DNA of 64,000 bases from Candidatus Nomurabacteria bacterium (lineage in GTDB: Bacteria; Patescibacteriota; Minisyncoccia; Phycocordibacterales; UBA9973): the NCBI GenBank assembly GCA_023267195.1, contig JAHFNT010000003.1, positions 10,841 through 74,840 of the forward strand, in the 5' to 3' direction. Under the pieces are notes generated by a model. That model did no database searches. It was not told the origin of the DNA and saw only the letters and a list, made by a program, of their open reading frames with translations. Every line of letters starts with the position of its first letter. The stretch's first letter is position 1. The position numbers and the translations under genes were made by a program. This document shows positions 1,242 to 32,564 of the stretch, piece after piece.

Positions 1242-3002
1242 TTATTCTGAAACTACTCGGAACACTTCTTCTAAAGTGGTCACGCCAAGCACCGCCTGGA
1301 AAACTCCGTCTTCAATCATCGTCATCATTCCCTCTTTTTTTGCCTGAATCTCTATTTCATCCTGCGAACTTCCGCCAATAATCATTTCTTTGATAGCGGG
1401 CGTCACTTTCAACACCTCATGCATGCCTATGCGATTTGAATAGCCATCTTCAAATTCAGTGCTTTTCTTTGCTTTATAAAATGGAATTTTCTCCCAAGTA
1501 TCATCGGCGCCGATTATATTTTCAGTTTTCAAAAATGAAAGTACGCGGTCTAAATCGACCACTTTACTGAGATTTTTTATTTCCGCCGGGGATAAAAAAT
1601 ACTTTTCCTTGGTGGGTGTGAGCTTGCGCACCAATCTTTGCGCAATAATTGTTTTTACGGTAGCAGTTATTAAAAAAGGTTCTACCCCCATATCGATCAT
1701 TCGGGGTATTGCCCCGGCGGCAGAGTTGGTATGAATCGTAGATAAAACCAAATGTCCGGTAAGCGAAGCATTGACCGCGAGCCCCGCTGTCTCTCCATCA
1801 CGAATCTCCCCCACCATTACAATATCCGGATCTTGGCGCAGTAAAGAACGAAGGCCGTTGGCAAAAGTGAGACCGATTTCTGGCTTGACCTGGGTTTGGT
1901 TAATTCTCGGCATTTGGTATTCAATCGGATCTTCCACAGTAGAAATATTTACTTCCGGCCTATTTAAAATATCAAGCATGGTATAGAGCGTAGTAGTCTT
2001 TCCACTGCCCGTTGGCCCGGTAGCCAAAATCATTCCAGTTTTTTGTTTTAGTGAATTATGGATTCTTTCTAGTCCCTCGCCATGGAAACCAAGCGTCTCT
2101 AGTGAAAATCCGTGCGAAGTTTCTTTTAAAATTCTGATAACCGTTTTTTCTCCAAAAAAGGTCGGTAGGGTGGAAACACGAAAAGAAATTTTCTCTCCGT
2201 TTTGCTCTATTTTAAACCTTCCATCTTGGGGCAATCTTTTTTCATCAAGTTTTAAGTTTGATAACACCTTTATACGAGCGGTGATTCCCAAACCTGCGCT
2301 TTTTTCCAACACCATCGCATCGTGCAATATGCCGTCTATCCGATAACGCACCGTGAGCTCATGTTCGCCTGGTTCAATATGGATATCAGACGCGTTTTGT
2401 AAAATCGCATGAAAAATTAAAGAGTCCACTATTTTTACCACCGGCAAATCCTCCGCCATCTCTTTTAATTCCGACTCAGATTTTTCTACTGGTTTATCGC
2501 CATCTTTTTTAGAAGAAACATCTATGGCATTTGATTCTTTTTGAATAATATCTTGGAATTCTGCTTTCAGACTTTGCCGATACTGCACCAATACGGCTTT
2601 AATAGAAGAATTATCGGTCAGACGCGGTAAAATTTTTAAGCCTGAACGTTTCTTGATAAAATCAATTACCGGCAAATCGTCTACATCTAGCATTGCCACC
2701 TCTAGACCATTTTCACTCTTTTTGTAGGCGACAATGTTGTAATTGCGAGCAATTGGTTCTGGAATAAGAGAAAGTACAGAAAAATCTATTTTTTGATTTT
2801 TTAAATCAATAAAAGGTATGCCAAGCACAAATGCCTCCATTCTTTTCAAGTCCGTCTCAGATATTTTCCCTTCTGAAAGCAAAACATTGCCGATCTTTTG
2901 CTTAGTATCTAGAGCCTTTTTGGCCACCTCTTCAAAATCTGTTTTAGATACAAGCCCTGCTTCTAAAATAAATTTTTTTAACTGATCCTCGTTGATTTGC
3001 AT
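1242..3002 (-). CDS. pilB: type IV pilus assembly ATPase PilB (GspE family)
   Basis: 586 aa; Walker A GPTGSGKTTT, GspE/PilB Asp/His boxes, N-terminal GSPII-type domain. Confidence 0.85.
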   Translation of the reverse strand: MQINEDQLKKFILEAGLVSKTDFEEVAKKALDTKQKIGNVLLSEGKISETDLKRMEAFVLGIPFIDLKNQKIDFSVLSLIPEPIARNYNIVAYKKSENGLEVAMLDVDDLPVIDFIKKRSGLKILPRLTDNSSIKAVLVQYRQSLKAEFQDIIQKESNAIDVSSKKDGDKPVEKSESELKEMAEDLPVVKIVDSLIFHAILQNASDIHIEPGEHELTVRYRIDGILHDAMVLEKSAGLGITARIKVLSNLKLDEKRLPQDGRFKIEQNGEKISFRVSTLPTFFGEKTVIRILKETSHGFSLETLGFHGEGLERIHNSLKQKTGMILATGPTGSGKTTTLYTMLDILNRPEVNISTVEDPIEYQMPRINQTQVKPEIGLTFANGLRSLLRQDPDIVMVGEIRDGETAGLAVNASLTGHLVLSTIHTNSAAGAIPRMIDMGVEPFLITATVKTIIAQRLVRKLTPTKEKYFLSPAEIKNLSKVVDLDRVLSFLKTENIIGADDTWEKIPFYKAKKSTEFEDGYSNRIGMHEVLKVTPAIKEMIIGGSSQDEIEIQAKKEGMMTMIEDGVFQAVLGVTTLEEVFRVVSE

Positions 3003-3076: not shown

Positions 3077-6000
3077 CTAATCTTCTATAAAGATCGGTAT
3101 CTTTTTGAATTCCAAACACGATGCGCCTCCACAAGACCATGTCCAAGCGGAGACACCGCTCGCCGCATCACCATTGTAATTGCCTTTAGTACAATTATTG
3201 TGTTTCAGGGCGCAAACGCCTCCACCCCAAGTATTAAACTTGCAGGAAGTGCTACATCCAACTGGTTCAGAATCGCCATTTAAATCTCCATAATCACAAT
3301 CTTCACCCGATTCCACTATACCATTTCCACAAACACCATTTTTTAATTCAACGCACGAAGGAAAAGCATTTGATCCGCCATTTATACCATTGCAATCCCA
3401 AGTATAGTCAGTAGCACTTTCTCTGTTATTGACACTAGTACCAGATACGCAAGCCCAGTGGATAATATCACAAACGCCATCAATGGGAGTCGCTATGCAC
3501 TTGCCTGTACCCGGATCCCATTCGGTGCCAGATGCACAACTGGAGAACACATTACTTAAAGCAAGCTGAACTCCATCATTGTAGAGATAAAAAGTTTCAA
3601 AATTATACTTGACCGCAAAAGGAACATTTGTCCCATTATTACCAGTAGCTACAGTGACACTGGGGGCTTTAGTAACTTCTGAAGTGCCTACTGGATTAGT
3701 CGTAGTCCAGGAAAAATTTATATTGCAACTGCTTGCTCCGAGCGGAATCGTGCAGGAAGGAACGGCAGGAGTAAGCGTGCCGGACATGCTGACAGGAAGG
3801 TCTGTAACAATCACATCTGTCCAAGGTCCGCAGTTATTGCCTTCGTTTGATTCGGCAATTACTCCTTGGCTCGAGGAATCTGTTTTGTCGGCACATGCCC
3901 TAATAGGATATTTCCCATTAGTGGTAAAAGTATAAGTATAAGATTGGGTCGTCACATTACTTGCGCCAGCGCCGAGAGCTGGCATTGGTGTCGCAGGAAG
4001 ATCCTCAACATTTAAACCTCTATTAGTAATCGGTATCTGAACCTGAAAGAAATTGGAGAAACTTTGGCCAGTCGAGGTGTCACCAAGGTTAGAAATAGTC
4101 GAAGAATATATTTGAGGCACACCCACCGTAGCTGTAGTTGGAGTTGTTGCGGAGGCGGTAAGATCTATCCCCGGAGGTAAAGCCGCAGCAACATTCACCG
4201 CTGTCCAGGAAGATGAGCAGTTGTTTCCTTCATTCGATTCAGTCACTGTGCCGACAAATGAAGCATTGTTGTCAGCGCAGGCTCGCATGTATTTGGTACC
4301 GACAGAAGTAAAGGTGTGAGGAGTTGAAATCACTACACTGCCGCCGGATGCGGACAAGGTACTAGTAGTTTGAACAATACTTGTTGTTTCGTTGCCACTA
4401 GCATGATTAGCATCTTCGTCAAACTGGTATAAATGCGTGATTGTTCCGGTTGCCGAGGTAGTGCCAATATTGGAAATTGTGGCGGTATAATTTTGAGCGA
4501 CATTAACAACCCCGGTGTTAGGAGAAGTGACGGAAGCAGTGAGGTCGGGGGCAAGTGGCGCTGTGACCGTTACTGTTGCACTAGAAGGACCCCCAGTACC
4601 ATTAGTATTTGTACAAGTCATTGTATAGGTGTAAGTCTTTATTTGTGTAAGCACCCCTTGAGAAATATTTGTTCCACTCACCGCATCGCCATTAGTATTT
4701 GTCCAATCTCCTCCGGTAAATGCACAAGAGGTTGGGTTGTTGGTAGCCGACCAAGTAAGCGCCGGGTTGACCACATTCACCACTCCAGAAGCCGGGTTAG
4801 CTGAAATAGTCACCACCGGCACGGGAACGGTTGTGACCACAATTGGCGTCCAAGCATAACAATTATTATTTTCATTAAACTCATTAACTACACCAAAATC
4901 GTACGGTGGTAAATCCGCGCAGACACGTAGGTAGTAAGTGCCAGCCGAGGAGAAAGTAAGCGATTTAAATATGGTAGTTGAATTTGGGACAGAACCATAT
5001 GGATCCCCGAGAGCTGGCGTTGCTACTGAATAGTTTGTAGGGTTGCTACCGCTTGCAGAACTGGAGACCTGGAAAAGAGAAGTGGAAGCGCTAGCAGAAA
5101 CTTCCCCATTATTTTTAATCGAGGCAAAATAATTTTGGGCTACATTTACGGTTGCGGTAGTTGGAGAAAGCGAAAGAACAGTTAGATCCGGCAGGAGACA
5201 AAACGGCGGAGCAGTAGCTGAGGCTTGAGCAGAATTTGGAGAAGTTCCAACAGTGTTTACCGCTTGCACCACGTAATAATAGCCAGTACTTGGAGTCAGG
5301 GAATTGCTGTCAGTGTAGGAAGTGCCAACGATACCACTAGCAAGCAAGGTATAACCGCTACCAGAAGTGGTACTGCGAAGCACTTTGTAACTTTCTGCTC
5401 CTGTCGATGCATTCCAGGATAAGTTAATCATACCAGTTCCACAACTTCCTGCAGAAGCAGAAAGATTGGTCGGCGCTAACGGCGCAGTACCGGACACTGC
5501 TACATCTCTCCAGTCTGAACAATTATTATTTTCGTTCGTTTCACTAACTACTCCACTTGAAGCAGAATTTGTTTTGTCGGCACAAACACGAACATAAAAT
5601 GTTCCCGGATAATCAGCAGTTATGGCAGGAGAAACTGCAGCAGTTGTGCCCCCGGCCGCAAGTGCACTGACAGTACTTGATGGAAGATCATTTAGAGTTC
5701 CCCCGCCATTCGGCTCAGTGGATGTCTGGAAAAAATAGGAGAAGGAAGCATTAGTAGATTCGTTGCCAACATTTGAAATTGTTGAATTGTATGTTTGAGG
5801 AACTCCCACCTGCGCCGTAGCTGGAGTAGGTAAAGAAGCAGTTAGATCCGGACCAGTTGGCGGAGAGGCAACCACGTACGCGCTTCCCGCAGGGCCAGCG
5901 CCGCTAATATTTGAACAAGTTAAGGTGTAGGTGTATGTTCCGGCTGATGGCAATACTCCTTGAGATACGCTTGAACCACTGACTGGTTTTGAACCGTTCC

Positions 6001-9000
6001 AATCACCCGAGGCGGTACAGGAACTAGGATTATTGGTCGCACTCCAAGTGATAGCTGGGTTAATACTCCCTGTTGTACCAGTACTAGGGGTGGCTGAAAT
6101 AGTTACTATCGGTACAGGAATCGTGGCCACCACCATTGCAGTCGCTTCTGCGCTATCTCCGCCAGCGTTGGAACAAACTAAACTATAGTTATATATTTTT
6201 TGTATTGGGAGTACTCCTTGCGACACACTAGTACCACTAACTGCTCCTCCGTTGGTATTGGTCCAGTTCCCAGAAAAAGTACAGGAGGTCGGATTGTTTG
6301 TAGCGCTCCAGGTTATAGCTGGGTTAATAGTTTGTGCTGGACCAGAAGCTGGAGAAACAGAAATAGTTACTACTGGTACAGGAGGAAGGGGTGGCTGACA
6401 CATACCTCCAATCCAACTTGTTCCTGATACACAAGTTGCGTAAGCTGTAGCGCTGGCTAGCGTTTCGCCATTGTTATTTAAAAAGAAATCTCTTAGACCG
6501 AAAGATGTTTGAACGGGATAGAAAGTTACTGGAATAGATACAGTGCCAGAATTGCCATTCCCAACTACAGTATTTGGGTTTTCCCTGTTTGAAGTGACAT
6601 TCGAAATACCAACTGGGTTTGTCGTATTCCAAGCCAAAGTCGTATTACAAGAACTAGCGCCGGAGGCAATTGTGCAGTTTGAAGCGGTCAAACTTCCGGA
6701 CATAACAGGCTTATCTTCGGAACATGAGGGAGAGGTATTGGACCCACCATTTTCGCCATTACAATTCCACAGATATTGTGTCGCGGAGTCTGGAATATCA
6801 CTTAAAATTCCTGCCTGACAAGCATTCACACTGACTCCACAGACGCCATTTACTGGACTACCTGGTGTGGTTTGACACATATTTTTTACTGCATTCCAAG
6901 TCGTACCCGAAGCGCAATTGGCGCTGACAATTGTTGTAGCTAGGGTACTTGAGTTATTAACCAAGCTGCAATTAACTGTGGGACTACTGTGAGAAATAGT
7001 TATAGACTGTGAACCAGAATTGGCGGTTATTGAACTAGGCGTAGCCCCCGGACAGGAAACAGTGGAAGTGCCAACCGGATAACTTGTATTCCAAGTCAAA
7101 GTTGAAGTACAAGAGTTTGCCCCAGAATTAATAGAACAGTTGGCGGGTGAAGCACTCAAGGTTCCGGATGTGAAGTTTTCTTGAACAAAGCTTGCCAGAA
7201 CTGCACATTCGGCATTAATAGGCCCAGTAGTATAAGTATTGCCAGCAAGAGAACCCCCGCAACCTGAAACCAAAGAAGTATATCCGGTATTGGGAGTAAC
7301 GGTAAAGGTTGTCGTGTTGCCCGCCGTCACCGTCCTAGAAGCAGGTGAAATAGATCCATTGGGACCGGCTGTGGCGGCGACACTATATGAGATCGAAGAT
7401 TTTGGCGCAGTGCAGGAAACACTTACTCCTCCATTTGACCCGTTGCAATCCCATCTATATTGGGTTGAAGTATCGCCAGTAGTACCACTGCTGGTACCCG
7501 CATCACAAGTGTAAGCAACCGCTGGGACTGAACAAGCGCCATTTATTGGGGAAGATGACGTCGCGCAAATTGTTCCATTCCAAAAAGTACCCGTATCACA
7601 GGAAGAAGTAACAGTTATACCGGCACCATTTGGCGATGTTGGAACAAGTGATTTGGCGTTGTTGTATAAATAAAAAGTTCTACTGCTGTAAGGAACAGTT
7701 AAAGTTTGACTGCCTGATGTGCCAGATAAATTTATATTTGACATTCCAGTTGCAGTGATAGCTGAACTTGCTGATTCTGGACTTGCCACACTCCAAGTTG
7801 AACCGACAGTACAACTACTCTGCCCTAAGGCGATGGTGCAAGAAGAAGATGCAGGAACAAGAGTACCGGTCATAGAAGGACATGGACTGGTAGTAAATGT
7901 TACATCTGTTCCAGCTCCAGTACCCACGCTGTTTACGGCATACGCGCGAAAATGATAAGCGGTATTGCATGTCAACCCGCTTACGTTTTGTGTAAAGTTT
8001 CCTGTTCCAAAACTTCCAGACTGAGGATAAGGACTTCCATAACTCGTACTGGTACCAAAATCAAAACCTCTTTGAGTTGCATTTACTCCTCCAGTATTTG
8101 TTATATTTCCATTTAGAGCGGCAGAAGTTTGAGTTACATTTGTAGCTGAGTTGGTGGTGACAGAGGGATCTATGATCGAGGATGATGTAAACGAAAAAGA
8201 AATATTACAGTCTTGGGTAATAGCCCCTGTGGTATATACACTACCAGATGTAAATGATCCTTTAATTGGACAGTAGTCCTGCACAATACTAGACAATGAT
8301 GAATTAACGCTAAAGAATGTGGTATCCCCATACACTACTGATCTAGATCCTGGAGATACTGTACCACCAGACCCATAACTTGCAGTAACAGTATGCGGTT
8401 GGACAGTATACACAGGACTAGAACAACTAGCTGAATTGCCAGCTAGATCTGTAATAGTAACACTACAAGAACTTCCAGCTGAAGCTGTACAAGTTCCACC
8501 GGCTACGTTTATGCCACTCTGCCCGCTAATACCACTGGCAGGCGCATCGGTTGCGCCGGAAAGTGTGTATGTAGGCCCTGATCCACTCCAATTTGCACTG
8601 CTAGGACTAGGACAAATAGGATCAAGCGTATCTATTCTATTCACCGGACTTTGACATGTAGTAAAATTTTGGGTTACTGATGGACAAGGAGTGAAGTATT
8701 GATAACTGGTAGTATCAATACAAGAGGCAGTACATGTAGCGTCATTAGAAGTACCAGTAGTACAACTACTTGTATGGTTAAGCGTACTGCTCCCATCGGT
8801 ATAACTTTGATTTAAAGTAAAATATTGAGAGCTCGCAGTTGTTTTCCAAGGAATAGGAGAAGCTGGGGTCCAAGTGGCTGGGTATGCAACACATTCTGCA
8901 TTAGTAGTTGGCTGTAAAGAAATAGTAACAGTTTTAGTGGGGCCATCGTAAGGGTCTGGTTGACAATTTTGCGCGATAAAGACAGCAATTTGCGCATTGG

Positions 9001-9316
9001 TGGTTATCGGGCTTGTGGTATAAGTTCTCCCGGTCGCATTTGGCCCAACATAATTATTTGATCCGCCAGGATAAGTAATATTATTCTGCGATCCTGGCTC
9101 CGCAACTGTGTATACCGTAAAAGTAAGCGTGTTTCCGGAAGCAACTTGCACTGAGCTATCTGTTGTATAATTATTTCCGTTGATGCTGAATGTTACGCCT
9201 GGGTCACCCACCGCACTACAGAGCGCAATTGCTTGTGCTCTATTAGAATTAAAATTAAAAACTCCAGTTAGAATAAAAATCAAAAAGAAGATAATTCTTA
9301 AAAATTTATTTTTCAT
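3077..9316 (-). CDS. giant secreted modular cell-surface protein (Ig-like, CARDB-like, Fn3-like and Cys-containing tandem modules)
   Basis: ORF 3077..9358 begins with TTG; an in-frame ATG at 9316 preceded by GGAG gives a classic signal peptide MKNKFLRIIFFLIFILTGVFNFNSNRAQA. Ser/Thr/Gly-rich. Four copies of a ~100-aa module (SGTL..C.I..G.SSC...W.T..PVG ... C.SGT.W....C), each followed by a QY.W.CNG.NGG...SC module. Three Ig-like repeats (VTISA.P..G..NPA.TWSATNNP.SC). Four CARDB-like repeats ending CAD......G.V.ESNE.NNC. One Fn3-like domain (SYKVLRSTTSGSGYTLL...YYYVVQAVNTVG). Confidence 0.75.
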   Translation of the reverse strand: MKNKFLRIIFFLIFILTGVFNFNSNRAQAIALCSAVGDPGVTFSINGNNYTTDSSVQVASGNTLTFTVYTVAEPGSQNNITYPGGSNNYVGPNATGRTYTTSPITTNAQIAVFIAQNCQPDPYDGPTKTVTISLQPTTNAECVAYPATWTPASPIPWKTTASSQYFTLNQSYTDGSSTLNHTSSCTTGTSNDATCTASCIDTTSYQYFTPCPSVTQNFTTCQSPVNRIDTLDPICPSPSSANWSGSGPTYTLSGATDAPASGISGQSGINVAGGTCTASAGSSCSVTITDLAGNSASCSSPVYTVQPHTVTASYGSGGTVSPGSRSVVYGDTTFFSVNSSLSSIVQDYCPIKGSFTSGSVYTTGAITQDCNISFSFTSSSIIDPSVTTNSATNVTQTSAALNGNITNTGGVNATQRGFDFGTSTSYGSPYPQSGSFGTGNFTQNVSGLTCNTAYHFRAYAVNSVGTGAGTDVTFTTSPCPSMTGTLVPASSSCTIALGQSSCTVGSTWSVASPESASSAITATGMSNINLSGTSGSQTLTVPYSSRTFYLYNNAKSLVPTSPNGAGITVTSSCDTGTFWNGTICATSSSPINGACSVPAVAYTCDAGTSSGTTGDTSTQYRWDCNGSNGGVSVSCTAPKSSISYSVAATAGPNGSISPASRTVTAGNTTTFTVTPNTGYTSLVSGCGGSLAGNTYTTGPINAECAVLASFVQENFTSGTLSASPANCSINSGANSCTSTLTWNTSYPVGTSTVSCPGATPSSITANSGSQSITISHSSPTVNCSLVNNSSTLATTIVSANCASGTTWNAVKNMCQTTPGSPVNGVCGVSVNACQAGILSDIPDSATQYLWNCNGENGGSNTSPSCSEDKPVMSGSLTASNCTIASGASSCNTTLAWNTTNPVGISNVTSNRENPNTVVGNGNSGTVSIPVTFYPVQTSFGLRDFFLNNNGETLASATAYATCVSGTSWIGGMCQPPLPPVPVVTISVSPASGPAQTINPAITWSATNNPTSCTFSGNWTNTNGGAVSGTSVSQGVLPIQKIYNYSLVCSNAGGDSAEATAMVVATIPVPIVTISATPSTGTTGSINPAITWSATNNPSSCTASGDWNGSKPVSGSSVSQGVLPSAGTYTYTLTCSNISGAGPAGSAYVVASPPTGPDLTASLPTPATAQVGVPQTYNSTISNVGNESTNASFSYFFQTSTEPNGGGTLNDLPSSTVSALAAGGTTAAVSPAITADYPGTFYVRVCADKTNSASSGVVSETNENNNCSDWRDVAVSGTAPLAPTNLSASAGSCGTGMINLSWNASTGAESYKVLRSTTSGSGYTLLASGIVGTSYTDSNSLTPSTGYYYVVQAVNTVGTSPNSAQASATAPPFCLLPDLTVLSLSPTTATVNVAQNYFASIKNNGEVSASASTSLFQVSSSASGSNPTNYSVATPALGDPYGSVPNSTTIFKSLTFSSAGTYYLRVCADLPPYDFGVVNEFNENNNCYAWTPIVVTTVPVPVVTISANPASGVVNVVNPALTWSATNNPTSCAFTGGDWTNTNGDAVSGTNISQGVLTQIKTYTYTMTCTNTNGTGGPSSATVTVTAPLAPDLTASVTSPNTGVVNVAQNYTATISNIGTTSATGTITHLYQFDEDANHASGNETTSIVQTTSTLSASGGSVVISTPHTFTSVGTKYMRACADNNASFVGTVTESNEGNNCSSSWTAVNVAAALPPGIDLTASATTPTTATVGVPQIYSSTISNLGDTSTGQSFSNFFQVQIPITNRGLNVEDLPATPMPALGAGASNVTTQSYTYTFTTNGKYPIRACADKTDSSSQGVIAESNEGNNCGPWTDVIVTDLPVSMSGTLTPAVPSCTIPLGASSCNINFSWTTTNPVGTSEVTKAPSVTVATGNNGTNVPFAVKYNFETFYLYNDGVQLALSNVFSSCASGTEWDPGTGKCIATPIDGVCDIIHWACVSGTSVNNRESATDYTWDCNGINGGSNAFPSCVELKNGVCGNGIVESGEDCDYGDLNGDSEPVGCSTSCKFNTWGGGVCALKHNNCTKGNYNGDAASGVSAWTWSCGGASCLEFKKIPIFIED

Positions 9317-9441
9317 ATTTATTTTTTCTCCGCTCCCATGGTTTAATAATACTTTCAATTGTACTACAAAAAATGTAAAAAGTTATCTAAAAAGTTATCC
9401 ACATAATTTAAAAAATTTAAAATTATAAATTTAGGCAAATT

Positions 9442-9484
9442 AAAACGAGAAAGCGGCGTGGCCTCCAGAGGAAGCTCGCCGCTC
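9442..9484 (-). terminator. rho-independent terminator of the GC-rich cassette gene (minus strand)
   Basis: reverse strand reads AGCGGCG-loop-CGCCGCT followed by TTCTCGTTTT directly after the stop at 9568. Confidence 0.45.
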
Positions 9485-9567
9485 TCTCAACCGCGCGATT
9501 GTGCGCAGTCGAGTGATGTGAGGGGGAAGAAGGGCCCCCTCGATCCCTTGCTCTAACCTATCAGGGG

Positions 9568-10347
9568 CTAGTTAGTGGGTGGCCGATAAACGGCCACCAC
9601 CCGGCTGGAGCAACGACCTCCTTCGCAGTAGGTCATGACCCAGTCGTTGTTAGGAAGGCTCCCCATGGAGATCTTCCCGTTGACGATTGGGACTTTGTTC
9701 CCCCCGAGAGTTACCACGGGGGGGGTCACCGAGACCGTCGGTACAGAGACGTTGATTTCGGACCCGTCCTCAGAGGGCCAGGCCCGAACGAACGGCCCAC
9801 ACGCGGGGGCCGCCGCCATCCGCACAGGCACCTCGGCAGACACGAACGAAACAGCACCAGTGGTCCCGTCAGTGATCACCGCCTCGAAAGCCGTAACCCC
9901 AACCGGCCAGGGGTCAGGGAACTTGGAACCCCAGAGCTGGGACCACCAGGTCCCACCACCCGAACCCGCCGGCACAGTGAAGCTGTTAAGCGGGATTGTT
10001 GCCCTCGAGGGCAGCACGATGTTGAAAAGGATCGTGCTTCCCTCGGGAAGCGGGTCGAACTGGTAGAAGTTCACGTGGGTTATCCGGGCGAATCCCGGGG
10101 GACCCACGAAAGAGACCTCGATTGTGGCGTTAGCCGGCGTCATCGCCGGCTCTGCAGCCCTGATCGAGGACCGAGAGCCGATATGAGTGGTGATGATGCC
10201 ACTCGTACCGTCGGTCAGCATGTCACCGGCGAAGTCTTCTGTGCCCGAAGGCACCAACTCAGCCAGCGACCGCCGAGGAGCCGTGGGCTGCGTGGCGTCC
10301 ACAGAGGACGCCAGCAGAAAGAAGAGGGTAACGAGAGTGGCGCGCAT
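9568..10347 (-). CDS. hypothetical secreted protein encoded in a GC-rich (~60%) cassette
   Basis: 259 aa; signal peptide MRATLVTLFFLLASSVDA; strong SD AAGGAGGG 7 nt before ATG; codon usage/GC clearly unlike flanking genes; several long shadow ORFs on both strands typical of GC-rich DNA. Confidence 0.55.
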   Translation of the reverse strand: MRATLVTLFFLLASSVDATQPTAPRRSLAELVPSGTEDFAGDMLTDGTSGIITTHIGSRSSIRAAEPAMTPANATIEVSFVGPPGFARITHVNFYQFDPLPEGSTILFNIVLPSRATIPLNSFTVPAGSGGGTWWSQLWGSKFPDPWPVGVTAFEAVITDGTTGAVSFVSAEVPVRMAAAPACGPFVRAWPSEDGSEINVSVPTVSVTPPVVTLGGNKVPIVNGKISMGSLPNNDWVMTYCEGGRCSSRVVAVYRPPTN

Positions 10348-10537
10348 GGCGCCCTCCTTTCCGACCCGCCTTTCTTTGCGGATCTGTTGTTAGTCTACTC
10401 TTCTGTTGTCGACGAACCGACAACCGAAGAACCAGTAATTCCTTATGAGTATACCATAAAAAAGTAAAAAACACAATTGCAAGTGGATAACCTGTGGACA
10501 ATTTTTGCCGTATACTGTCAATGTTTTTGGCTCGAAT

Positions 10538-10586: not shown

Positions 10587-10691
10587 CTATGGGAAAACAA
10601 TTTGCATTAAAACACACTCTGTGATAAACTTCTCTACGTACGAGTCCTGCGAAACAGGGCTTTATTTTTTACCAAAATTTAATAAAAATTT

Positions 10692-11903: not shown

Positions 11904-13925
11904 ATGAATCAATTTTTGTTGTTTGCAATTGTTAGCTCAGTTGTAGCTATTGTTTATGGTTTATTTTTAGCCAAATCAATTTTAAAAAAGAGCCCGGGCA
12001 ACGAGCGAATGCAAGAAATTGCTAAAGCGATTCAAGCAGGAGCCGGCGCTTACTTGAACAAACAATATAAGACTATCGGAATGATTGCGGTAGTGCTTTT
12101 CTTTGTTATTGGATTTAGTCTAGGCTGGACTATGGCTTTTGGATTTTTAGTGGGAGCGGTTTTTTCCGCACTCGCTGGATACATCGGCATGAATGTATCG
12201 GTGCGGGCTAATGTCCGCACTACGGAAGCGGCTAGGCAAGGTTTAAATAAAGCCCTTTCTCTCGCCTTTCAAGGCGGAACGGTTACTGGACTTTTAGTAG
12301 TAGGGCTTGCTCTCTTAGGAGTAACTTTATTTTATGCAATTACCAAGGACGTCAATGCGCTTATTGGGCTTGGTTTTGGCGCCTCTTTGATTTCAGTTTT
12401 TGCAAGACTTGGTGGAGGAATTTTTACCAAAGCAGCAGACGTGGGAGCAGATCTCGTCGGTAAATTGGAAGCTGGTATTCCAGAAGACGATCCGAGAAAT
12501 CCGGGGGTGATCGCGGACAATGTCGGAGACAATGTCGGAGATTGCGCTGGTATGGCCGCGGATTTATTTGAAACTTATGCTGTTACTTCAGTAGCCACCA
12601 TGCTTCTCGGCTCTTTGCTTTTTATTGGTTTTGAAAATGCAATTCTTTATCCGCTAGCTATTGGTGGCATAGCCATCTTCGCTTCCATCATCGGCACTTG
12701 GTTTGTGCGTTTAAGCAAACCAAAAAATGGAGAAAAGGCAAACATTATGGGCGCTTTGTATAAAGGCTTGATTGCTTCCGGTATCATTGCGGCAGCGGCG
12801 TTTTATCCCGTGACTAAATTATTAATGGCAGGCAATGGCAAATATGAAGTAATGGATTTATTTATTTGCTCGCTGGTCGGACTCTTGGTTACCGGCGCTC
12901 TCGTCGTTATTACCGAATATTTCACTTCTACCAAATACTCTCCCGTTAAATCAATAGCACTCGCTTCAGTCTCCGGCCACGGCACCAATGTGATTCAAGG
13001 TTTGGCAATTTCCATGAAATCTACCGCTCTTCCATTGATCACGATCGTTTCAGGAATATTGGTTAGTTATCAATATGGCGGACTTTATGGTATAGCAGTC
13101 GCGGCAATGTCTATGCTCTCCATGACTGGGATTATCGTAGCAATCGATGCTTACGGACCGATCACCGACAACGCCGGAGGCATCGCCGAGATGGCTGAAC
13201 TTCCAGAATCAGTGCGCAATGTTACAGATCCTCTCGATGCAGTCGGCAATACCACCAAAGCAGTAACGAAAGGTTATGCCATCGGTTCCGCGGGTTTAGC
13301 AGCTCTAGTACTTTTCGCTTCTTACACAGAAGAAATTATAAAAGCTGGTAAAAGCATAACTTTTGATTTAAGCAATCCATATGTAATCATTGGTTTATTT
13401 ATCGGGGGTCTTCTTCCCTACTATTTCGGAGCGCTTTGCATGGAAGCTGTAGGAAAAACTGCCGGAAAAGTCGTGGAAGAAATTCGCAGACAATTTAGAG
13501 AAATAAAAGGAATCATGGAAGGCAAAGCGAAACCAGATTACGCCAAAGCGGTTTCCATCATCACTGGCGCCGCGATCAAACAAATGATCTTGCCGGCCTT
13601 GATACCAGTTTTGGCACCGATTTTGGTAATTTTAATTTTTGGACAAGAGAATGGTTTGGTTGTTTTGGGAGGTCTGCTTGTCGGCTCTATTGTCACTGGC
13701 CTTTTTGTGGCAATTTCTATGACCTCTGGGGGAGGTGCCTGGGATAATGCCAAAAAATATATTGAACAAGGCAATCACGGAGGCAAGGGTGGAGATGCGC
13801 ACAAGGCCGCAGTAACTGGAGATACTGTCGGTGATCCATATAAAGACACAGCGGGCCCAGCTATAAACCCAATGATTAAAATACTAAATATCGTAGCTTT
13901 GCTTTTGGTAGCTTTCTTGGTATAA
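11904..13925 (+). CDS. hppA: membrane-bound proton/sodium-translocating pyrophosphatase
   Basis: 673 aa, ~15 TM helices, signature [21 protein letters not shown] and C-terminal [14 protein letters not shown]. Confidence 0.9.
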
Positions 13926-13969
13926 TCTATTTGGGTCCGATTATTAATCTAAATATAAGAAAAATACTT

Positions 13970-14893
13970 ATGAAAAAATACTTAAGTCTATTTATTGTTT
14001 TATTAATGGCATTTGCTATAAATGCCAACGTTTCAAGGGCAAGAGATGATGAATCTTTTGACGCTTCTGGTAAAGAAAAGGTCCAAGTTGAAACTAATTT
14101 AAAAATCGGGGTAAATGTTTCCGATGAAGATAGTCAAGATAACAGTAATGAAGATGAAGATAAGGATGGGGTTAATGATACTGAAGACAGGGATGACGAT
14201 GATGATGGCATATTAGACATCAAAGACCTCAAACCACTGGATCATGACAACGATGGTATTGATGATGCAAAGGACGAAGATGATGATAATGATGGCATAT
14301 TAGACATCAAGGATTTGAGTTTGTTTGACCGTAACAATGATGGCATCAAAGACAAAGAGGCTTTAGACATCGAAGCAAAAACAAGAACTGAGGCTGCTCG
14401 GGAAGAAGCCAAGAAAAAATTAGAAGCTTTGCGAGAAAATTTAAAAGAGGAGAAAGATGAAGCCAAAGCAAAAATCAAAGAATTAAGAATCACCGGGAGA
14501 GAGAAAGCGTTGGAGCGATTTGATAATGCAGTCGAAAGAATTAGTGAATTAAAAGACAAGGTAAACGAAAAAATTGTTAAATTGGAAGCAAAAGGGGTAG
14601 TTGTAGTGGAGGCAAAAGCTTTCGTTGCCTCAGCTGAAACAAAATTGAATGAGGCTAAAGCAAAAATTACTGAAATTAATACTGTACTGGCTGCGTCGAT
14701 TACTGAACTTTCTCTAGAGAGTAAAACAAAATTAAGAACTCTGGCGCAAGAAACTCAAACTCTCCTTGTGGAAGCGCATAAAGCATTAAGGGATGCGGTT
14801 AAGTCACTCAAGGATGCTGTAAAGGTAAAAATTGAAGCAAATGCAAACCTAAAGGTATCAGAAAACAATGATAAAAATGAAGGTAGTAATTAA
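13970..14893 (+). CDS. secreted protein with thrombospondin-type-3-like calcium-binding repeats and coiled-coil C-terminus
   Basis: ORF 13931 begins with TTG; ATG at 13970 gives signal peptide MKKYLSLFIVLLMAFAINA; repeated DxDxDGxxD motifs (DKDGVNDTEDRDDDDDGILD, DHDNDGIDDAKDEDDDNDGILD); Lys/Glu-rich coiled-coil tail. Confidence 0.55.
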   Translation: MKKYLSLFIVLLMAFAINANVSRARDDESFDASGKEKVQVETNLKIGVNVSDEDSQDNSNEDEDKDGVNDTEDRDDDDDGILDIKDLKPLDHDNDGIDDAKDEDDDNDGILDIKDLSLFDRNNDGIKDKEALDIEAKTRTEAAREEAKKKLEALRENLKEEKDEAKAKIKELRITGREKALERFDNAVERISELKDKVNEKIVKLEAKGVVVVEAKAFVASAETKLNEAKAKITEINTVLAASITELSLESKTKLRTLAQETQTLLVEAHKALRDAVKSLKDAVKVKIEANANLKVSENNDKNEGSN

Positions 14894-14921
14894 TATTTTA
14901 TAAATTAAATTATTCAACACT

Positions 14922-15140
14922 ATGGAACCAGATAAAAAATCAAATGGAGCGCTTGTGGGCTTAGTAGCAATAATAATCATTTTGGTGCTGGGTGGAGTAT
15001 ATATTTGGATGTCTAACAAAAATCAACCAGATAATTCTGGAGCTCTTTCAGATCAAGATTCTGCTGCTCTAGATGCTTTAGACCAAGATGCAGCCAGTGT
15101 AGATGTAAATACTGGAGTAGATGTAAACGCCTTGCAGTAA
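14922..15140 (+). CDS. small membrane protein (single TM, Asp-rich tail), hypothetical
   Basis: 72 aa, TM helix LVGLVAIIIILVLGGVYIW; position in gene-dense strand-consistent block. Confidence 0.4.
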   Translation: MEPDKKSNGALVGLVAIIIILVLGGVYIWMSNKNQPDNSGALSDQDSAALDALDQDAASVDVNTGVDVNALQ

Positions 15141-15229
15141 AAATATTTAGAGTTAACCTAAAAAATCCCATCATCAAAAATGATGGGATTTTTTGACAAA
15201 AAACCTAAATAAATATAAACTGAAAATCT

Positions 15230-16291
15230 ATGAAAATAACAGTAAAAAAATTGCCAAAAAGCGAAGTGGAGATTGAGGGCGAACTCGAGGCGGATAAGTT
15301 TGAGTCTTATTTTGCCCAAGCGTTAAAAAAGGTAGGGGAAAATCTGGAATTGGATGGATTCAGAAAAGGCAAGATACCGGAAAGTGTTTTGCTGTCCAAG
15401 GTACCTGAAATATCTATCTTGGAAGAAATGGCACAGCTGGCTCTGGGAGAACACTACCCCAAAATTCTAGAAGATGAAAAGATAGACGCGATCAGCCGGC
15501 CGGAAATCTCGATTACTAAATTAGCGCGCAAAAATCCGCTTGGTTTCAAAATCAAAACTGCCACCCTGCCCGCCATAAAACTTCCCGATTACAAAAAAAT
15601 TGCCAAGAATATAATTTCAAAAATAACTGACGCTGAAAAAAATGTAACAGTTACTGAGGAGGACCTAGAAAACATGATAATAGATATTAGGAAATCTCGC
15701 GCACCGAAAGTGCACATGGCGGAAGGAGCCGACCCTGTGCACAAAGAGGGAGAAACCCATCCAGAACCCGAGTTGCCAGAATTCAATGATGAATTTGTAA
15801 AAGCGCTTGGCCCTTTTAAGGATGTGGCAGACTTTAAAGAAAAACTTAAAATAAATTTAAAACTAGAAAAAGAAAACACACAGAAAGAGAAAACCAGGCT
15901 GAAGATAATTGACGAAATAATTGAAGGCAGCACGCTTGATTTACCTGAAATTTTAGTTGAAATTGAGCTGGATAAAATTTTATACCGAATGGAATCAGAT
16001 ATTGCTCAAATGGGTCTTCAGTTTGACGATTATTTAAAGCACCTGAACAAAACAAAGGATGATTTGCGAAAAGATTTTCGTAAAGACGCAGAGAAAAAAG
16101 CTAAACTCGCTCTGGTTTTGAATGAAATATCTAAAGTTGAAAAAATAGTTGCTGATTCGGAACAAGTAGCTAAAGAGGTGGCCGCTATTTTGGAACAATA
16201 CAAAGAAGCAGATCCGGAACGTGCTCGCATGCACGCCGAGCAAGTTCTAACCAACGAAAAAATCTTTCAGTTTTTAGAAACCCAACAATAG
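15230..16291 (+). CDS. tig: trigger factor (short form lacking recognizable PPIase domain)
   Basis: 353 aa; N-terminal ribosome-binding signature GFRKGKIP; C-terminal helical arm domain; no FKBP-like block. Confidence 0.7.
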   Translation: MKITVKKLPKSEVEIEGELEADKFESYFAQALKKVGENLELDGFRKGKIPESVLLSKVPEISILEEMAQLALGEHYPKILEDEKIDAISRPEISITKLARKNPLGFKIKTATLPAIKLPDYKKIAKNIISKITDAEKNVTVTEEDLENMIIDIRKSRAPKVHMAEGADPVHKEGETHPEPELPEFNDEFVKALGPFKDVADFKEKLKINLKLEKENTQKEKTRLKIIDEIIEGSTLDLPEILVEIELDKILYRMESDIAQMGLQFDDYLKHLNKTKDDLRKDFRKDAEKKAKLALVLNEISKVEKIVADSEQVAKEVAAILEQYKEADPERARMHAEQVLTNEKIFQFLETQQ

Positions 16292-23587: not shown

Positions 23588-24202
23588 ATGCTAATACCAA
23601 CAGTCATTGAAAAATCACAATTTGGAGAGCGGGCTTATGACATTTATTCTCGCCTTTTACGCGAGCGAATAATCTTTCTGGCTGGACCGATTGATGACCA
23701 TACTGCCAACATTGTCATTGCCCAACTTCTATTTTTGGAGTCTGAAGATTCGAAAAAGGACATTTATCTTTACGTCAATTCCCCTGGCGGATCTGTCACC
23801 TCTACAATGGCCATCGTAGATACCATGAATCACGTCCGGCCGGATGTTTCCACTTTCTGCGTTGGCCTGGCCGCTTCTGGCGCCGCTATAATTTTATCTT
23901 CCGGCAAAAAAGGCAAACGCTACATCTTGCCAAATGCGGAAGTGATGATTCACCAGCCACTCGGTGGCGTGGAAGGCCAAGCGACAGATATCGCCATTAC
24001 CGCGAAACACATCCTAAAAACGAGAGATAATTTAAATAAACTGCTAGCAAAAAATACTGGCAAATCTTTCGCTCAGATAGAAAAAGACGTGGAGCGAGAT
24101 TTCTTTATGGATGCCGAAGAAGCCAAGAAGTACGGCATCGTGGATGAAATAGTCACCAAATCCAAAACTACAGCTTCAAATTCCAAACCGGAAAGTCTAT
24201 AA
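23588..24202 (+). CDS. clpP: ATP-dependent Clp protease proteolytic subunit
   Basis: 204 aa; MLIPTVIE... start; Ser-His-Asp context ([19 protein letters not shown]). Confidence 0.95.
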
Positions 24203-24268: not shown

Positions 24269-24298
24269 TTGACTTTTTATATAAATATGTGTTATAAT
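24269..24298 (+). promoter_or_regulatory. near-consensus sigma70-type promoter (TTGACT-18-TATAAT) upstream of GC-rich cassette gene
   Basis: TTGACT at 24269-24274, TATAAT at 24293-24298. Confidence 0.4.
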
Positions 24299-24320
24299 TG
24301 ATCAAGAAGTTCGTTAGTGC

Positions 24321-24370
24321 TTGATTGCAGTTTTGAGGGTGTTTATTAGTACTTTCAAAACCGCAATCAA
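24321..24370. promoter_or_regulatory. 16-bp near-perfect inverted repeat (candidate operator) between promoter and SD
   Basis: TTGATTGCAGTTTTGA ... TCAAAACCGCAATCAA (1 mismatch) separated by 18 bp; ends ~25 nt before the start codon. Confidence 0.45.
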
Positions 24371-24395
24371 GCGGAATTTAGAGAAGGAGGAGATC

Positions 24396-24920
24396 ATGAA
24401 GATCTCTCGTGTCATCGCTCTGTTCGTCTCTACCTTCGTCATGGGGTTCTCCCTATGTTTCGTGGGGCGTTGTCTCGACAGCGCCATGGAGGCGTTCGAA
24501 GAGGCCAAGACGTCTCTCGTTCAGGCTGGCGGAGCCGAGACCCACGGTTACTACCTGTGGCACCAGGCCGGCAACCGCGCCCTGATCATCGGGGCGATCC
24601 TGACTGTCGTAGCGGTGATCTCGTGGGTGGCAAGCTTCTTCCTGATCCGACGTCATGGGTGGGGAAAGCTCATCTCTCACACCGAACTCCGACCGGGTAT
24701 CTATCGTCTCGTGTGTGCGGGGCGACAGGTGGGACGCGCGACACCCCTGGCGATCATCGAGTACGAGGGCTCTCTGGTGGCGTGCAAACTCCCCGTCCTT
24801 GATGACGAGAGGATACTCCAGTCTGGAGAATACATCAGGGTGGAGTATTCCAAGACGAGCAACCGCTGGTACGCCAGCGTGCTGCCTGACGACACATCGG
24901 TCGCCAACGTGACCACCTAG
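24396..24920 (+). CDS. hypothetical two-TM membrane protein encoded in GC-rich (~60%) cassette
   Basis: 174 aa from ATG at 24396 with strong SD GAGAAGGAGGAG; TM helices ALFVSTFVMGFSLCFV and LIIGAILTVVAVISWVASFFLI; surrounding ORFs on other frames judged shadow ORFs. Confidence 0.55.
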   Translation: MKISRVIALFVSTFVMGFSLCFVGRCLDSAMEAFEEAKTSLVQAGGAETHGYYLWHQAGNRALIIGAILTVVAVISWVASFFLIRRHGWGKLISHTELRPGIYRLVCAGRQVGRATPLAIIEYEGSLVACKLPVLDDERILQSGEYIRVEYSKTSNRWYASVLPDDTSVANVTT

Positions 24921-25020
24921 CTCTTTCCCTTCTCCCCCACTTCCTCGCCGCGAACTGGTGATCTTCGCAATAACTAACCAAAGGGCCCGAGAGAGCCCCA
25001 TCAAATCTCTCGTATCGAAA

Positions 25021-25060
25021 AACGGCGTCGCCCACATCGGGCGCGCCGTTTCCTCGTTTT
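25021..25060 (+). terminator. GC-rich rho-independent terminator of cassette gene
   Basis: AACGGCGTCGCCC-ACATC-GGGCGCGCCGTT followed by TCCTCGTTTT. Confidence 0.5.
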
Positions 25061-25094
25061 AGGTTATATTTATATTTTACTTGGGCAAATAAAA

Positions 25095-29196: not shown

Positions 29197-29721
29197 TTAT
29201 TTTTGAGGTATTGGTAATCCAAGCTTTTGTAATGGTAAATATTTAAAATAATATTGACACCCAACAGATATTATATAATCACAAACATCTTTATAGGACG
29301 AGTGTTTGAACCAATCACTAAGTATATAAATGTATTCCACTTCTATGTTTAGAGGAGCCATTAACTTTGCATATTGTTTTCTTTTAAAATCACATGTTTG
29401 TAATTTTTCATCAACAGAACCTGCGACTTTTTGAAATTTTACTTCAATAATAAAAAGTGTGTTATTTACAATTACATAAATAGCTTCATCTGGCAATAAT
29501 TTCTTAGAAAGAATCTTTTTATAATCAATTTTTTTAGATTCGAGAAATTTATACAATGCGTTCTTCTTGAAACTCCTTGCAACTTCTTTCCCATTGTAAA
29601 GTATAATATTACCATTAATTTTGTAACCTTTCTGTTTTTTTAGTAACGCCAAAATATCACTTTCTTTTTCAAAATTTAACCCAGTTATTGTATTACCACC
29701 ACCCTTTCCTTTTTCAATCAT
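29197..29721 (-). CDS. Type II restriction endonuclease (PD-(D/E)xK fold), candidate
   Basis: 174 aa; D...IIEVKFQK PD-ExK-like core; start overlaps stop of the DNA methyltransferase; very AT-rich relative to neighbours. Confidence 0.5.
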   Translation of the reverse strand: MIEKGKGGGNTITGLNFEKESDILALLKKQKGYKINGNIILYNGKEVARSFKKNALYKFLESKKIDYKKILSKKLLPDEAIYVIVNNTLFIIEVKFQKVAGSVDEKLQTCDFKRKQYAKLMAPLNIEVEYIYILSDWFKHSSYKDVCDYIISVGCQYYFKYLPLQKLGLPIPQK

Positions 29722-29722
29722 A

Positions 29723-30544: not shown

Positions 30545-30567
30545 ATACTTATATTAACATTTTTTGG

Positions 30568-32303: not shown

Positions 32304-32564
32304 AATATAAACTTTAAAGAAGGGGACGAGTGTCTCGTTGCCCCTCCTAGAGCTCGACGAATTGGTTACGGGTTTGGGGCCTTTCTCCCCTCTCCCCATA
32401 ACACCTGGAGTGACATCGGCGCCGAGACTTTTCGTCCCAGCAGTCGTACTCCCAGGTGTGGATTTCGTTGTTGCAGATGGAACAGATTTCTATTTCGACG
32501 TAGATCTCAGCAGACTCTTCCACGGTACACCTCTTCGTTTATTATACTAGCACAAAAACAAAAG

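Follow-up and report, generated by a model that had tools for sequence, protein, structure and literature searches.

GC-rich, Shine-Dalgarno-led single-gene cassettes at variable slots in a Candidatus Nomurabacteria genome

The DNA analysed here, referred to as the window, is a stretch of 64,000 nucleotides (nt) from contig JAHFNT010000003.1 of Candidatus Nomurabacteria (Paceibacterota; candidate phyla radiation, CPR). Its overall GC content is 39.6%, but it contains four patches of 53-63% GC, which we call C1 to C4. Each of them is a one-gene unit that consists of a leader, a Shine-Dalgarno (SD) sequence of 6-8 nt, a small open reading frame (ORF) and a strong terminator hairpin. We consider it probable that the four patches are genuine, independently expressed single-gene accessory cassettes, which reached fixed slots of the genome by recurrent horizontal import and replacement from a GC-richer gene pool that uses SD sequences. 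We infer horizontal transfer from the deviation in composition, codon usage and initiation mode, together with the variability of the slots in related genomes.

Four GC-rich single-gene units

The GC content was scanned in windows of 120 nt (mean 0.396, standard deviation (sd) 0.080), and stretches above 0.55 were regarded as islands. Only two long stretches exceed this threshold, namely C1 (9423-10429, 1007 nt, 60.9% GC) and C2 (24386-25065, 680 nt, 59.0%), and lesser peaks are found at C3 (60955-61170, 53.7%) and C4 (32309-32488, 53.3%). The GC content at third codon positions (GC3) is 0.75, 0.76, 0.71 and 0.68 in C1 to C4, compared with a mean of 0.338 (sd 0.069, maximum 0.46) in 45 other genes of the window, so that the cassettes are outliers by 5-6 sd in composition and GC3. 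This confirms an earlier sequence-only reading of the same DNA, which had described three patches unlike the background and possibly a fourth. The ORFs of 259, 174 and 40 aa that it had assigned to the three patches are present at 9568-10347 (-), 24396-24920 (+) and 60960-61082 (+), and the possible fourth patch is real, its best ORF being one of 58 aa on the minus strand (32347-32523).

Codon usage, which the sequence-only reading had proposed to check, deviates as well. In the cassettes 92% of the Ile codons are ATC and 92-100% of the Phe codons are TTC, compared with 22% and 18% in host genes; AAC for Asn and CAG for Gln are used throughout (100%, compared with 25% and 35%). The relative synonymous codon usage of the cassettes is negatively correlated with that of the host genes (r = -0.51), and positively with that of two contigs of higher GC content, L098 (53% GC) and L026 (51% GC; r = +0.54 each). 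L026 was recovered through the search with the ATPase gene described below; its ATPase is 66% identical, and its GC3 is 0.72. Where overlapping ORFs were compared, the SD-led frame of each cassette had the highest GC3. The enrichment includes codons that end in G and not only those that end in C, so that the bias looks like a general one towards GC and not like translational selection. An expression-linked codon bias was also considered and ruled out: the genes for ClpP, trigger factor and the abundant protein HU (GC3 0.38) are host-like in GC3.

The cassettes also differ from the resident genes in how translation is initiated. All four have an SD match of 6-8 nt, as the sequence-only reading had stated (AAAGGAGG in C1, AAGGAGG in C2, AAGGAG in C3 and GAGGTG in C4), whereas none of 38 host genes has a match of at least 6 nt and only two have one of at least 5 nt. 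C1 to C4 are thus the only SD-led genes among those checked, and a strong SD is anomalous in itself in this genome, a point that the sequence-only reading had missed. In nine of the 38 host genes a strict -10 box, often of the form TGnTAnAAT, ends 4-10 nt before the start codon, which is the case for 2% of random positions. With a -10 box immediately before the start, these mRNAs are probably leaderless, and many resident genes probably belong to this type; examples of SD-less or -10-box starts are the genes at 1242-3002, 23588-24202, 25095-26984, 34619-35881, 52173-53129 and 54928-55722. A similar poverty in SD sequences was found in seven other Paceibacterota-like contigs.

C1 lies on the minus strand between nusA and the gene of a CARDB/fn3 adhesin, one of the gaps between conserved genes correctly noted in the sequence-only reading. 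A promoter-like element at 10448-10482 (-) was read by eye; it has TTGCAA/TTGTGT upstream and an extended -10 TGgTATACT, with the -10 hexamer at 10453-10448. It is not called by a consensus promoter scan. Counterparts of the element can be aligned upstream of the positional homologues in L096 and L085 (z = 10.9 and 7.6), and the local alignment with L096, which includes promoter, parts of the leader and SD/start, scores 81 compared with 26 +/- 5 in shuffles; a promoter function is predicted. The leader of about 95 nt (10348-10445, -) carries the SD AAAGGAGG at 10353-10360 and has a fold z-score of -2.3. The coding sequence (9568-10347, -) is longer than the open frame in all 2000 shuffles, and it specifies a 259-aa protein in which a signal-like N-terminus is followed by a disordered linker (about residues 20-69) and by two domains of Ig-like beta-sandwich fold (about residues 70-175 and 185-255). 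The N-terminus has a short hydrophobic stretch ending in VDA, which stays below the 19-residue Kyte-Doolittle threshold of 1.6 and which we read by eye as a predicted signal peptide. In the 3' untranslated region (UTR; 9441-9567, -, about 125 nt) there are four hairpins, the last of which (9447-9488) forms an intrinsic terminator with the following U-tract. The minimum free energy (MFE) of this UTR is -63.0 kcal/mol (z = -5.6), the maximum-likelihood edge of the GC island coincides with the end of the terminator stem, and the terminator half resembles that of the family member in L093 (z = 5.8).

The motif TTATCCAC, the core of a DnaA box, adjoins the promoter-like element of C1 at 10483-10490, as read from the sequence. 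It occurs seven times in the window (3458, 9395, 10483, 31940, 54693, 60025 and 63358; 1.8 +/- 1.3 expected), and copies adjoin the C1 promoter, the promoter region of the adhesin and the promoter of a 104-aa gene at 31989. The corresponding cassette of L096 is flanked by GTGGATAA and TTATCCACA (about 9855 and about 10880). TTATCCAC may be the binding site of a regulator and not an origin element.

C2 lies in the gap between clpP and the gene of a ClpB/C-type AAA ATPase, again as stated before. Its predicted promoter (24269-24298, +) consists of TTGACT, an 18-nt spacer and TATAAT with a TG, and matches the consensus at 11 of 12 positions. The leader of about 90 nt (24305-24395, +) is AT-rich and host-like, carries the SD AAGGAGG (24384-24390) and contains an inverted repeat whose arms at 24319-24336 and 24355-24372 form a hairpin (z = -4.8). 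The coding sequence (24396-24920, +; GC1/2/3 = 0.58/0.45/0.76) is equalled or exceeded by 1.25% of shuffles. Its 174-aa product has two transmembrane (TM) segments predicted by Kyte-Doolittle hydropathy (residues 3-27 and 57-86) and a soluble C-terminal part; no homologue was found in the word-indexed search or among phages, plasmids and viral contigs. The 3' UTR with the terminator (24921-25062, +) is about 140 nt long and has a hairpin at 25020-25051 followed by the tail UUCCUCGUUUUAG (MFE -41.1 kcal/mol, z = -3.2), and the edge of the GC island is placed 136 nt past the stop codon, in the tail beyond the terminator stem. In public gene calls C2 is represented by an ORF of 115 aa in another frame (ENA) and by one of 194 aa in antisense orientation (Logan). 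A perfect 10-nt inverted repeat, ATATAAATAT / ATATTTATAT at 24279-24288 and 25066-25075, brackets C2 from the promoter spacer to a point past the terminator; it is AT-rich and may be due to chance.

C3 fills the gap between a tRNA gene and a ZIP transporter gene, in agreement with the sequence-only reading. It directly follows tRNA-Gly(UCC) (60829-60900) and is the only cassette next to a tRNA gene. Upstream of the ORF there is a weak promoter-like element with the SD (60911-60959, +; TTGACT at 60911-60916, SD AAGGAG at 60948-60953), which is not called by the promoter scan. The coding sequence (60960-61082, +) specifies a hydrophobic peptide of 40 aa with one TM segment (hydropathy peak 3.07) and is followed by a terminator (61105-61150, +) with a 16-bp G+C-rich stem and a U-rich tail (MFE -39.7 kcal/mol, z = -6.6). 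With its 40 aa and one TM segment the peptide resembles the hydrophobic peptides of < 60 aa of type I toxin-antitoxin systems, and C3 could encode such a toxin-like peptide. Just past the terminator, a weak promoter-like site on the minus strand (61206-61179) points back at C3.

C4 (32347-32546, -) is located immediately downstream of comM. It comprises a TATAAT-like box (32541-32546), the SD GAGGTG (32528-32533) and an ORF with a GTG start (32347-32523, -), whose GC3 of 0.68 compares with 0.48 for the ORF on the opposite strand. The 58-aa product contains cysteines at positions 14, 17, 28, 37 and 41, is possibly a small zinc-binding protein and is probably cytoplasmic. The terminator (32306-32346, -) has a hairpin at 32319-32346 and a U-rich tail (z = -3.1), and was also matched by the terminator scan. 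C4 is absent from public annotation. The other three products, secreted (C1) or with two (C2) and one (C3) TM segments, are predicted to go to the envelope.

All four units thus end in a predicted terminator, a hairpin with a U-rich tail, as had been claimed, with fold z-scores of -5.6, -3.2, -6.6 and -3.1 compared with shuffles for C1 to C4. The claim of an identical terminator tail held in part: the tails of C1 (...CTTTCTCGTTTTA) and C2 (...GTTTCCTCGTTTTA) are similar, but they are not the same. When the units of related genomes are included, the maximum-likelihood 3' edge of the GC island lies at the terminator stem or within a few nt of it in 10 of 13 units, while the 5' edge varies from 95 nt upstream of the ORF to 113 nt inside it. 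The idea that the GC island equals the entire transcript, which would have hinted at an RNA-mediated process, was ruled out on account of this variable 5' edge and the AT-rich leader of C2.

Apart from the similar terminator tail, no DNA similarity was found among C1 to C4, and neither a recombination site nor a mobility gene is common to them. They are spread over 51 kb and form no array. The suggestion of a single family of mobile micro-cassettes therefore had to be abandoned. A scan of the flanks of C1 and C2 gave no repeats of note. The window ORFs scanned include no reverse transcriptase (RT) or transposase, and the sole recombinase is a distant XerC/D-like gene at 52173-53129. Searches of Pfam, NCBIfam, PHROGs and PADLOC gave no meaningful match for C1 to C4 or for the cassettes of relatives, none of the cassettes matched viral contigs, GenBank phages or PLSDB plasmids, and Rfam yielded only four tRNAs across the window.

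The C1 family and the slots in related genomes

An exhaustive HMMER search of 1.84 billion representatives, which was run for C1, listed 43 proteins at E <= 1e-3, i.e. 42 homologues besides the query, 17 of them at E <= 1e-10. The word-indexed protein search of 5.8 billion clusters found only C1 itself and a profile search by the same route two proteins; a metagenome scan with an alignment of six family sequences returned only the self match. The proteins of the HMMER list are 230-300 aa long and 29-49% identical (median pairwise identity within the family 31%), and their common motifs include QAxAxIEV, LWNGxFPxxWPxGxTxFE and CSxGxCSxRxVY. The closest relative, P0002, is 49% identical and is encoded on a 1-kb contig of its own (L085). 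AlphaFold (AF2) with homologues predicts two Ig-like beta-sandwich domains with a confidence score (pLDDT) of > 90 over most of residues 70-259, while the single-sequence model is poor (pLDDT 55.6). Foldseek found only generic Ig/Fab matches in the PDB, and generic Ig-like folds with low TM-scores among the viral folds of BFVD. RbmA of Vibrio cholerae (PDB 4be5), a secreted matrix protein with tandem beta-sandwiches, is 10% identical to C1; Ig, FnIII and macroglobulin domains score nearly as well, so that the fold is generic and the match is no evidence of a shared function or descent. The hypervariability of the family and the Ig-like architecture suggest that C1 acts at the surface or in a matrix and that hosts or phages select for its diversification. 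A diversity-generating retroelement was considered as a source of variability and rejected: no RT was present in the window ORFs scanned, and no repeats resembling template/variable repeat pairs were detected, either in or near C1.

Altogether 43 loci of relatives were read, and about 15 contigs with nine distinct contexts represent the C1 family. The GC content of the family gene and its surroundings is 62.6/39.6% in the window, 57.2/41.4% in L096, 57.4/43.9% in L086, 53.7/40.4% in L094, 50.5/36% in L090, 51.7/36.4% in L093 and 48.5/36% in L089. In the AT-rich genomes, seven out of seven, the offset thus lies between +12.5 and +23 points, compared with +3.7 points in L098 with its 53% GC; the 1-kb contig L085 is uninformative in this respect. 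In L098 the family gene (56.7% GC, GC3 0.61) has a near-native composition, its neighbours having a GC3 of 0.53-0.72. Over eight genomes, the GC content of the gene tends to follow that of the host (Spearman 0.68, p = 0.06, n = 8). An SD of at least 5 nt precedes the family gene in seven of eight genomes, compared with 8 of 113 other genes. The family contigs are SD-poor and of small-genome type, and one family cluster is named 'Candidatus Paceibacterota' by NCBI; the family appears confined to contigs that look like Patescibacteria. Neighbouring genes include SecDF, topA, type IV secretion genes and L20/IF3, and they differ between most of the contigs read, which does not indicate a fixed functional partner of C1. 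In two genomes, those of the window and of L096, C1 adjoins the 2093-aa CARDB/fn3 adhesin and PilB/PilC-type genes. The C1 family, previously unannotated, hypervariable and GC-elevated in every AT-rich genome examined, is new.

The slots were then compared between relatives. The best relatives of the ClpB/C-type ATPase are from metagenome-assembled genomes (MAGs) of Ca. Nomurabacteria/Paceibacterota, with identities of up to 76%. The closest relative found, L096/L097, is represented by an NCBI MAG and by a groundwater metagenome, with NusA 89-92%, the PilB-like T2SSE 89% and ClpP 93% identical. It has the gene order of the window (nusA, family gene, CARDB adhesin, T2SSE, T2SSF), yet the family protein in its C1 slot is only 28% identical to C1. 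L085, which encodes P0002, shares the C1 upstream region and probably also represents a homologue in the C1 slot. A second pair of this kind is L090/L094, where the flanking topA is 86% identical and the family proteins are 32% identical. The sequence-only reading had named orthologous cassettes of the same GC content in all relatives as evidence for an ancient origin. In partial agreement with this, a homologue does exist in the C1 slot of L096; with only 28% identity, however, it points to allele replacement at a fixed slot and neither to a one-off import nor to simple ancient inheritance.

The search for empty sites in relatives, which had also been proposed, was successful for C1 and C2. 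In the more distant relatives L010, L014 and L021, nusA directly adjoins the adhesin gene with no cassette in between, and in 14 relatives the gap between clpP and the ATPase gene measures 12-43 bp. Other relatives have this gap filled differently. L012 contains an unrelated GC-rich, SD-led and terminator-ended gene for a lipoprotein of 296-303 aa in the same orientation as C2, and L007, L018 and L020 contain AT-rich inserts. In L097, 188 nt beyond clpP could be read; they are AT-rich and, by eye, unlike the sequence that follows clpP in the window. The C4 slot downstream of comM is occupied in L016 by another GC-rich unit, which encodes 91 aa and ends in a hairpin terminator. Neither C2 and the L012 cassette nor C4 and the L016 cassette have significant similarity, promoter regions included. 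Position and flanks are thus conserved while the content diverges at the C1, topA, C2 and C4 slots. As the slots also accept AT-rich inserts, their turnover is not specific to GC-rich units. SD-led ORFs of high GC3 for secreted proteins or lipoproteins were also seen in L009, L020, L031 and L032.

L096 also carries an AT-rich insert (6839-9814, 25-31% GC) between nusA and the C1-type cassette, with genes for an IS200-like Y1 transposase, a methyltransferase and a DUF6922 protein and a 126-aa ORF, which marks the interval between nusA and the adhesin gene as a general insertion hot spot.

The age of the C1 allele can be narrowed down with the flanking genes. Their four-fold degenerate sites differ at 59-75% of positions between the window and L096, corresponding to a Jukes-Cantor distance of at least 1.2. 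The two C1 alleles have a GC3 of 0.75 (window) and 0.68 (L096), and by our own reckoning a Jukes-Cantor-type back-calculation from these values leads to a starting GC3 above 1, which is impossible. A neutral resident gene would have lost most of its GC3 excess since the split; the alleles are thus either imports that arrived at one slot after it, or their GC3 is actively maintained. The C1 allele would accordingly be younger than the split from the nearest relative, unless active maintenance of its GC content applies.

Origin of the cassettes

Based on the observed composition, coding signals, C1 family, fold, slot occupancy and flank conservation, a course of events can be proposed for the direction of transfer, the recombination mechanism, expression, export and function of the cassettes. 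Horizontal transfer would have brought them in from a gene pool that is richer in GC and uses SDs, and replacement at the same slots, via recombination in the conserved flanks, would turn them over. For C1 this pool would lie partly within the Patescibacteria, plausibly among GC-richer ones, given the near-native member in L098 and the codon usage that correlates with L098 and L026. Once in place, a sigma-70-type promoter would start transcription, the strong SD in the leader would recruit the ribosome to a short ORF with the codon usage of a genome of about 55-60% GC, and the G+C-rich hairpin terminator would insulate the cassette from its neighbours. The C1 product would be exported by a Sec-type route as a secreted protein with two Ig domains. 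Of the earlier suggestion of horizontal acquisition from a high-GC host, the first part is borne out by units that are self-contained and of foreign composition, and by slots that relatives leave empty or fill with something else. The host as donor is not: the C1 family was found only on small, SD-poor, Patescibacteria-like contigs, and there were no phage or plasmid matches. An intra-Patescibacteria pool for C1 agrees with a survey in which 83% of the detected transfers into groundwater Patescibacteria came from other Patescibacteria (PMC12455944).

Several points weigh against import and replacement. No close homologue was found for any cassette, for C1 by the exhaustive search, and neither a donor sequence nor a donor lineage emerged. 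No integrase or transposase was found beside the cassettes, and no att site or target duplication in the flanks scanned, those of C1 and C2. An exchange whose boundary falls right behind a conserved promoter would also require recombination handles, of which none could be identified. The GC content of the C1 family is raised in every one of the seven AT-rich genomes, including the two pairs of positional homologues, which could equally mean maintenance in place. The SD is retained in the compositionally native L098, so that it is a family trait and not simply a relic of the donor. Furthermore, the exhaustive search with C1 is the only one of its kind, C2 to C4 being without known homologues from lesser searches, and of the family about 15 contigs were read. 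Since public gene calls mis-frame ORFs of this type, protein databases are blind to C2 to C4, and missing homologues are weak evidence.

The main rival to import is that the cassettes form a resident, long-standing class of Paceibacterota genes, whose GC-rich, SD-led and strongly terminated design persists through selection, for instance in favour of stable and structured mRNAs that depend on an SD where translation is otherwise leaderless, or through GC-biased gene conversion as alleles are frequently exchanged. The elevated GC content in seven of seven AT-rich genomes, the tendency of gene GC to follow host GC, the SD conserved even in the compositionally matched L098, the promoter and SD that positional homologues have in common and the failure to find a donor or mobility machinery would all fit. 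However, the enrichment extends to C- and G-ending codons alike, which is what a general GC mutational bias would produce and not what translational selection would in an AT-rich genome. The HU gene, although highly expressed, has a GC3 of only 0.38, the slots are empty in many relatives and also take AT-rich inserts, and the edges of the GC islands are sharp, unlike a conversion gradient. We therefore regard a resident class as rather unlikely. The same low probability is given to a broader version, with two expression regimes in Paceibacterota: a leaderless, SD-less core and a phylum-wide class of GC-rich, SD-led, hairpin-terminated cassettes, mostly for hypervariable envelope proteins at fixed slots. 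Their composition would be no fading trace of import but actively maintained, either by selection on mRNA stability or SD-dependent translation or by biased conversion when alleles are swapped. The C1 family would then be the first member that can be recognised, and standard gene callers would systematically overlook the rest.

Direct capture by an episymbiont from an SD-using host or neighbour of about 60% GC, with retention of small genes for envelope proteins, is the idea preferred in the sequence-only reading and appears less probable still. The codon usage is like that of a genome of about 55-60% GC, strong SDs are typical of many such bacteria, and DNA uptake would fit with ComM, encoded in the window, and with DprA, encoded on a related contig. 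A 3.5-kb island of 60% GC in L032, with genes for OmpA-like and small beta-barrel-like proteins, looks diderm-derived, and C2 to C4 have no known CPR homologues. Nevertheless, the readable contexts of C1 homologues are all SD-poor contigs with small genes and none is typical of a high-GC bacterium; no named high-GC homologue turned up among 5.8 billion clusters or 1.84 billion representatives, there were no plasmid or phage matches, and the promoters are of the resident type, that of C1 being conserved with relatives. For C2 to C4 a high-GC host donor is no more than conceivable. Two further readings are effectively excluded. That chimeric assembly or contamination joined GC-rich fragments to an AT-rich contig might be suspected from the sharp composition breaks and from P0002, the closest homologue, sitting alone on a 1-kb contig. 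But two assemblies that were built with different programs and may share reads, represented by a MEGAHIT contig of 65 kb (ENA ERZ27279942) and a Logan contig of 7.9 kb (SRR14366796), agree base for base over the C1 gene and both of its junctions. A 3.6-kb Logan contig contains an identical ClpP gene and, within C2, the antisense ORF call of 194 aa noted above; judged by gene content, it spans clpP, C2 and the ATPase gene. This comparison of assemblies revealed no sign of a chimera. A homologous cassette also occupies the C1 slot in independent samples (NCBI MAG, groundwater metagenome), promoters of the resident type run straight into the units, and there are four separate islands, each a complete transcription unit. 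As improbable as an artefact is the notion that the patches are large structured RNAs, which intergenic DNA of high GC content often encodes in AT-rich genomes, with long ORFs arising by chance in GC-rich DNA. There are ORFs on both strands of C1 and C2, and the UTRs are strongly structured; Rfam, however, gives only tRNAs, GC3 peaks in the SD-led frame with codon-position periodicity, and the C1 frame, which beats all 2000 shuffles, belongs to a protein family with a confident fold. Import with replacement at fixed slots is thus the reading that we favour.

Attachment to other cells is the presumed way of life of CPR/Patescibacteria. The proteins that mediate this contact, and how they diversify, are largely unknown, and the cassettes offer a small set of candidate interaction genes, which can be spotted by GC3, SD and terminator in an otherwise SD-less genome. 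They also expose a practical weakness of gene callers trained on the AT-rich host, by which such ORFs are put into the wrong frame or passed over and so become apparent orphans, under-represented in protein databases. If the composition should be maintained and not imported, it would point to a second regime of mRNA and translation initiation in reduced genomes.

Further features and relation to known systems

The window contains two islands of low GC content (29197-31080 and 42400-47200; 25-35% GC, GC3 0.19-0.25). The former has a PD-(D/E)XK nuclease-like gene, an N6/N4 DNA methyltransferase gene and a 170-aa ORF and is probably a restriction-modification unit; the latter has several uncharacterised ORFs and a gene for a SET-domain protein (45741-46283). 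With low-GC islands in both the window and L096, these genomes are mosaics. Two giant ORFs are present, at 3077-9358 (2093 aa, four CARDB repeats and fn3) and 36531-42563 (2010 aa), the former lying upstream of the PilB/PilC-type T2SSE/T2SSF genes (1242-3002 and 11-1228). An H+-pyrophosphatase (11904-13925) is 90-91% identical in L009 and L016, but only 48% in L096, although this is the nearest relative in other respects. There its gene (3362-5392) is on the opposite strand relative to nusA, and a core gene thus seems to have been replaced by a xenologue. Upstream of nusA, a segment of about 87 nt (10602-10690) is 73-86% conserved in at least seven relatives and contains a hairpin with a T-run (10642-10662); it may belong to a leader or attenuator of nusA, or mark where a small RNA ends. 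In L032, a relative with 43% GC, the island of about 60% GC mentioned above (11982-15519, 3.5 kb) is located directly downstream of the ATPase gene. It encodes a Pro-rich lipoprotein of 585 aa, an OmpA-like protein of 418 aa and a 172-aa ORF product with a signal-like N-terminus. By eye, in a reading that has no family match behind it, the last of these looks like a small beta-barrel protein, and the island proteins look diderm-derived.

Phage morons, in the concept of Hendrix and Juhala, are single extra genes with their own promoter and terminator, which are located between conserved genes and have an atypical composition. C1 to C4 resemble them as autonomous units with predicted promoters, SDs and terminators, in their atypical composition and in their insertion between conserved genes. 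In contrast to morons, they are chromosomal, lying among nusA, clpP, comM and tRNA genes, and have no PHROG or phage matches; moreover, they are GC-richer than their surroundings, and related genomes use their slots again. Flexible genomic islands or islets of the replacement type occupy conserved loci, for instance loci for surface structures that differ between strains. The cassettes have in common with them conserved flanks, divergent or unrelated content and mostly envelope products, for which diversifying selection is plausible. They differ in being single small genes and not multi-gene clusters, and in that species-level relatives and not strains were compared here. In addition, the cassettes are SD-led in an SD-less genome, i.e. 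the mode of initiation is switched. Integron cassettes likewise are compact, carry a single ORF, deviate in composition and have a structured 3' end, but C1 to C4 are dispersed, each has a promoter-like element of its own, no attC-like site is common to them, and there is no IntI or attI. An integron mechanism was rejected on these grounds: the 3' ends are ordinary terminators with no similarity across units, and IntI is missing; no dedicated attC model was run.

The transfers described for groundwater Patescibacteria (PMC12455944) are similar in that their source is mostly within the Patescibacteria and that islands make up a measurable share of the genome. That survey used island predictors and best matches on called genes, and GC-rich, SD-led single-gene cassettes or the C1 family are not described in it; given mis-framed gene calls, such units would be hidden from a survey of this type. 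Our literature search on GC-rich or hypervariable cassettes and on SD usage in CPR found nothing relevant among the papers that it covered. In kind, the cassettes belong to a known class, that of compositionally foreign, moron-like accessory islets at replaceable slots. What is new compared with these systems is that SD-led cassettes occur in an SD-less, often leaderless CPR genome, and that their slots are reused across relatives.

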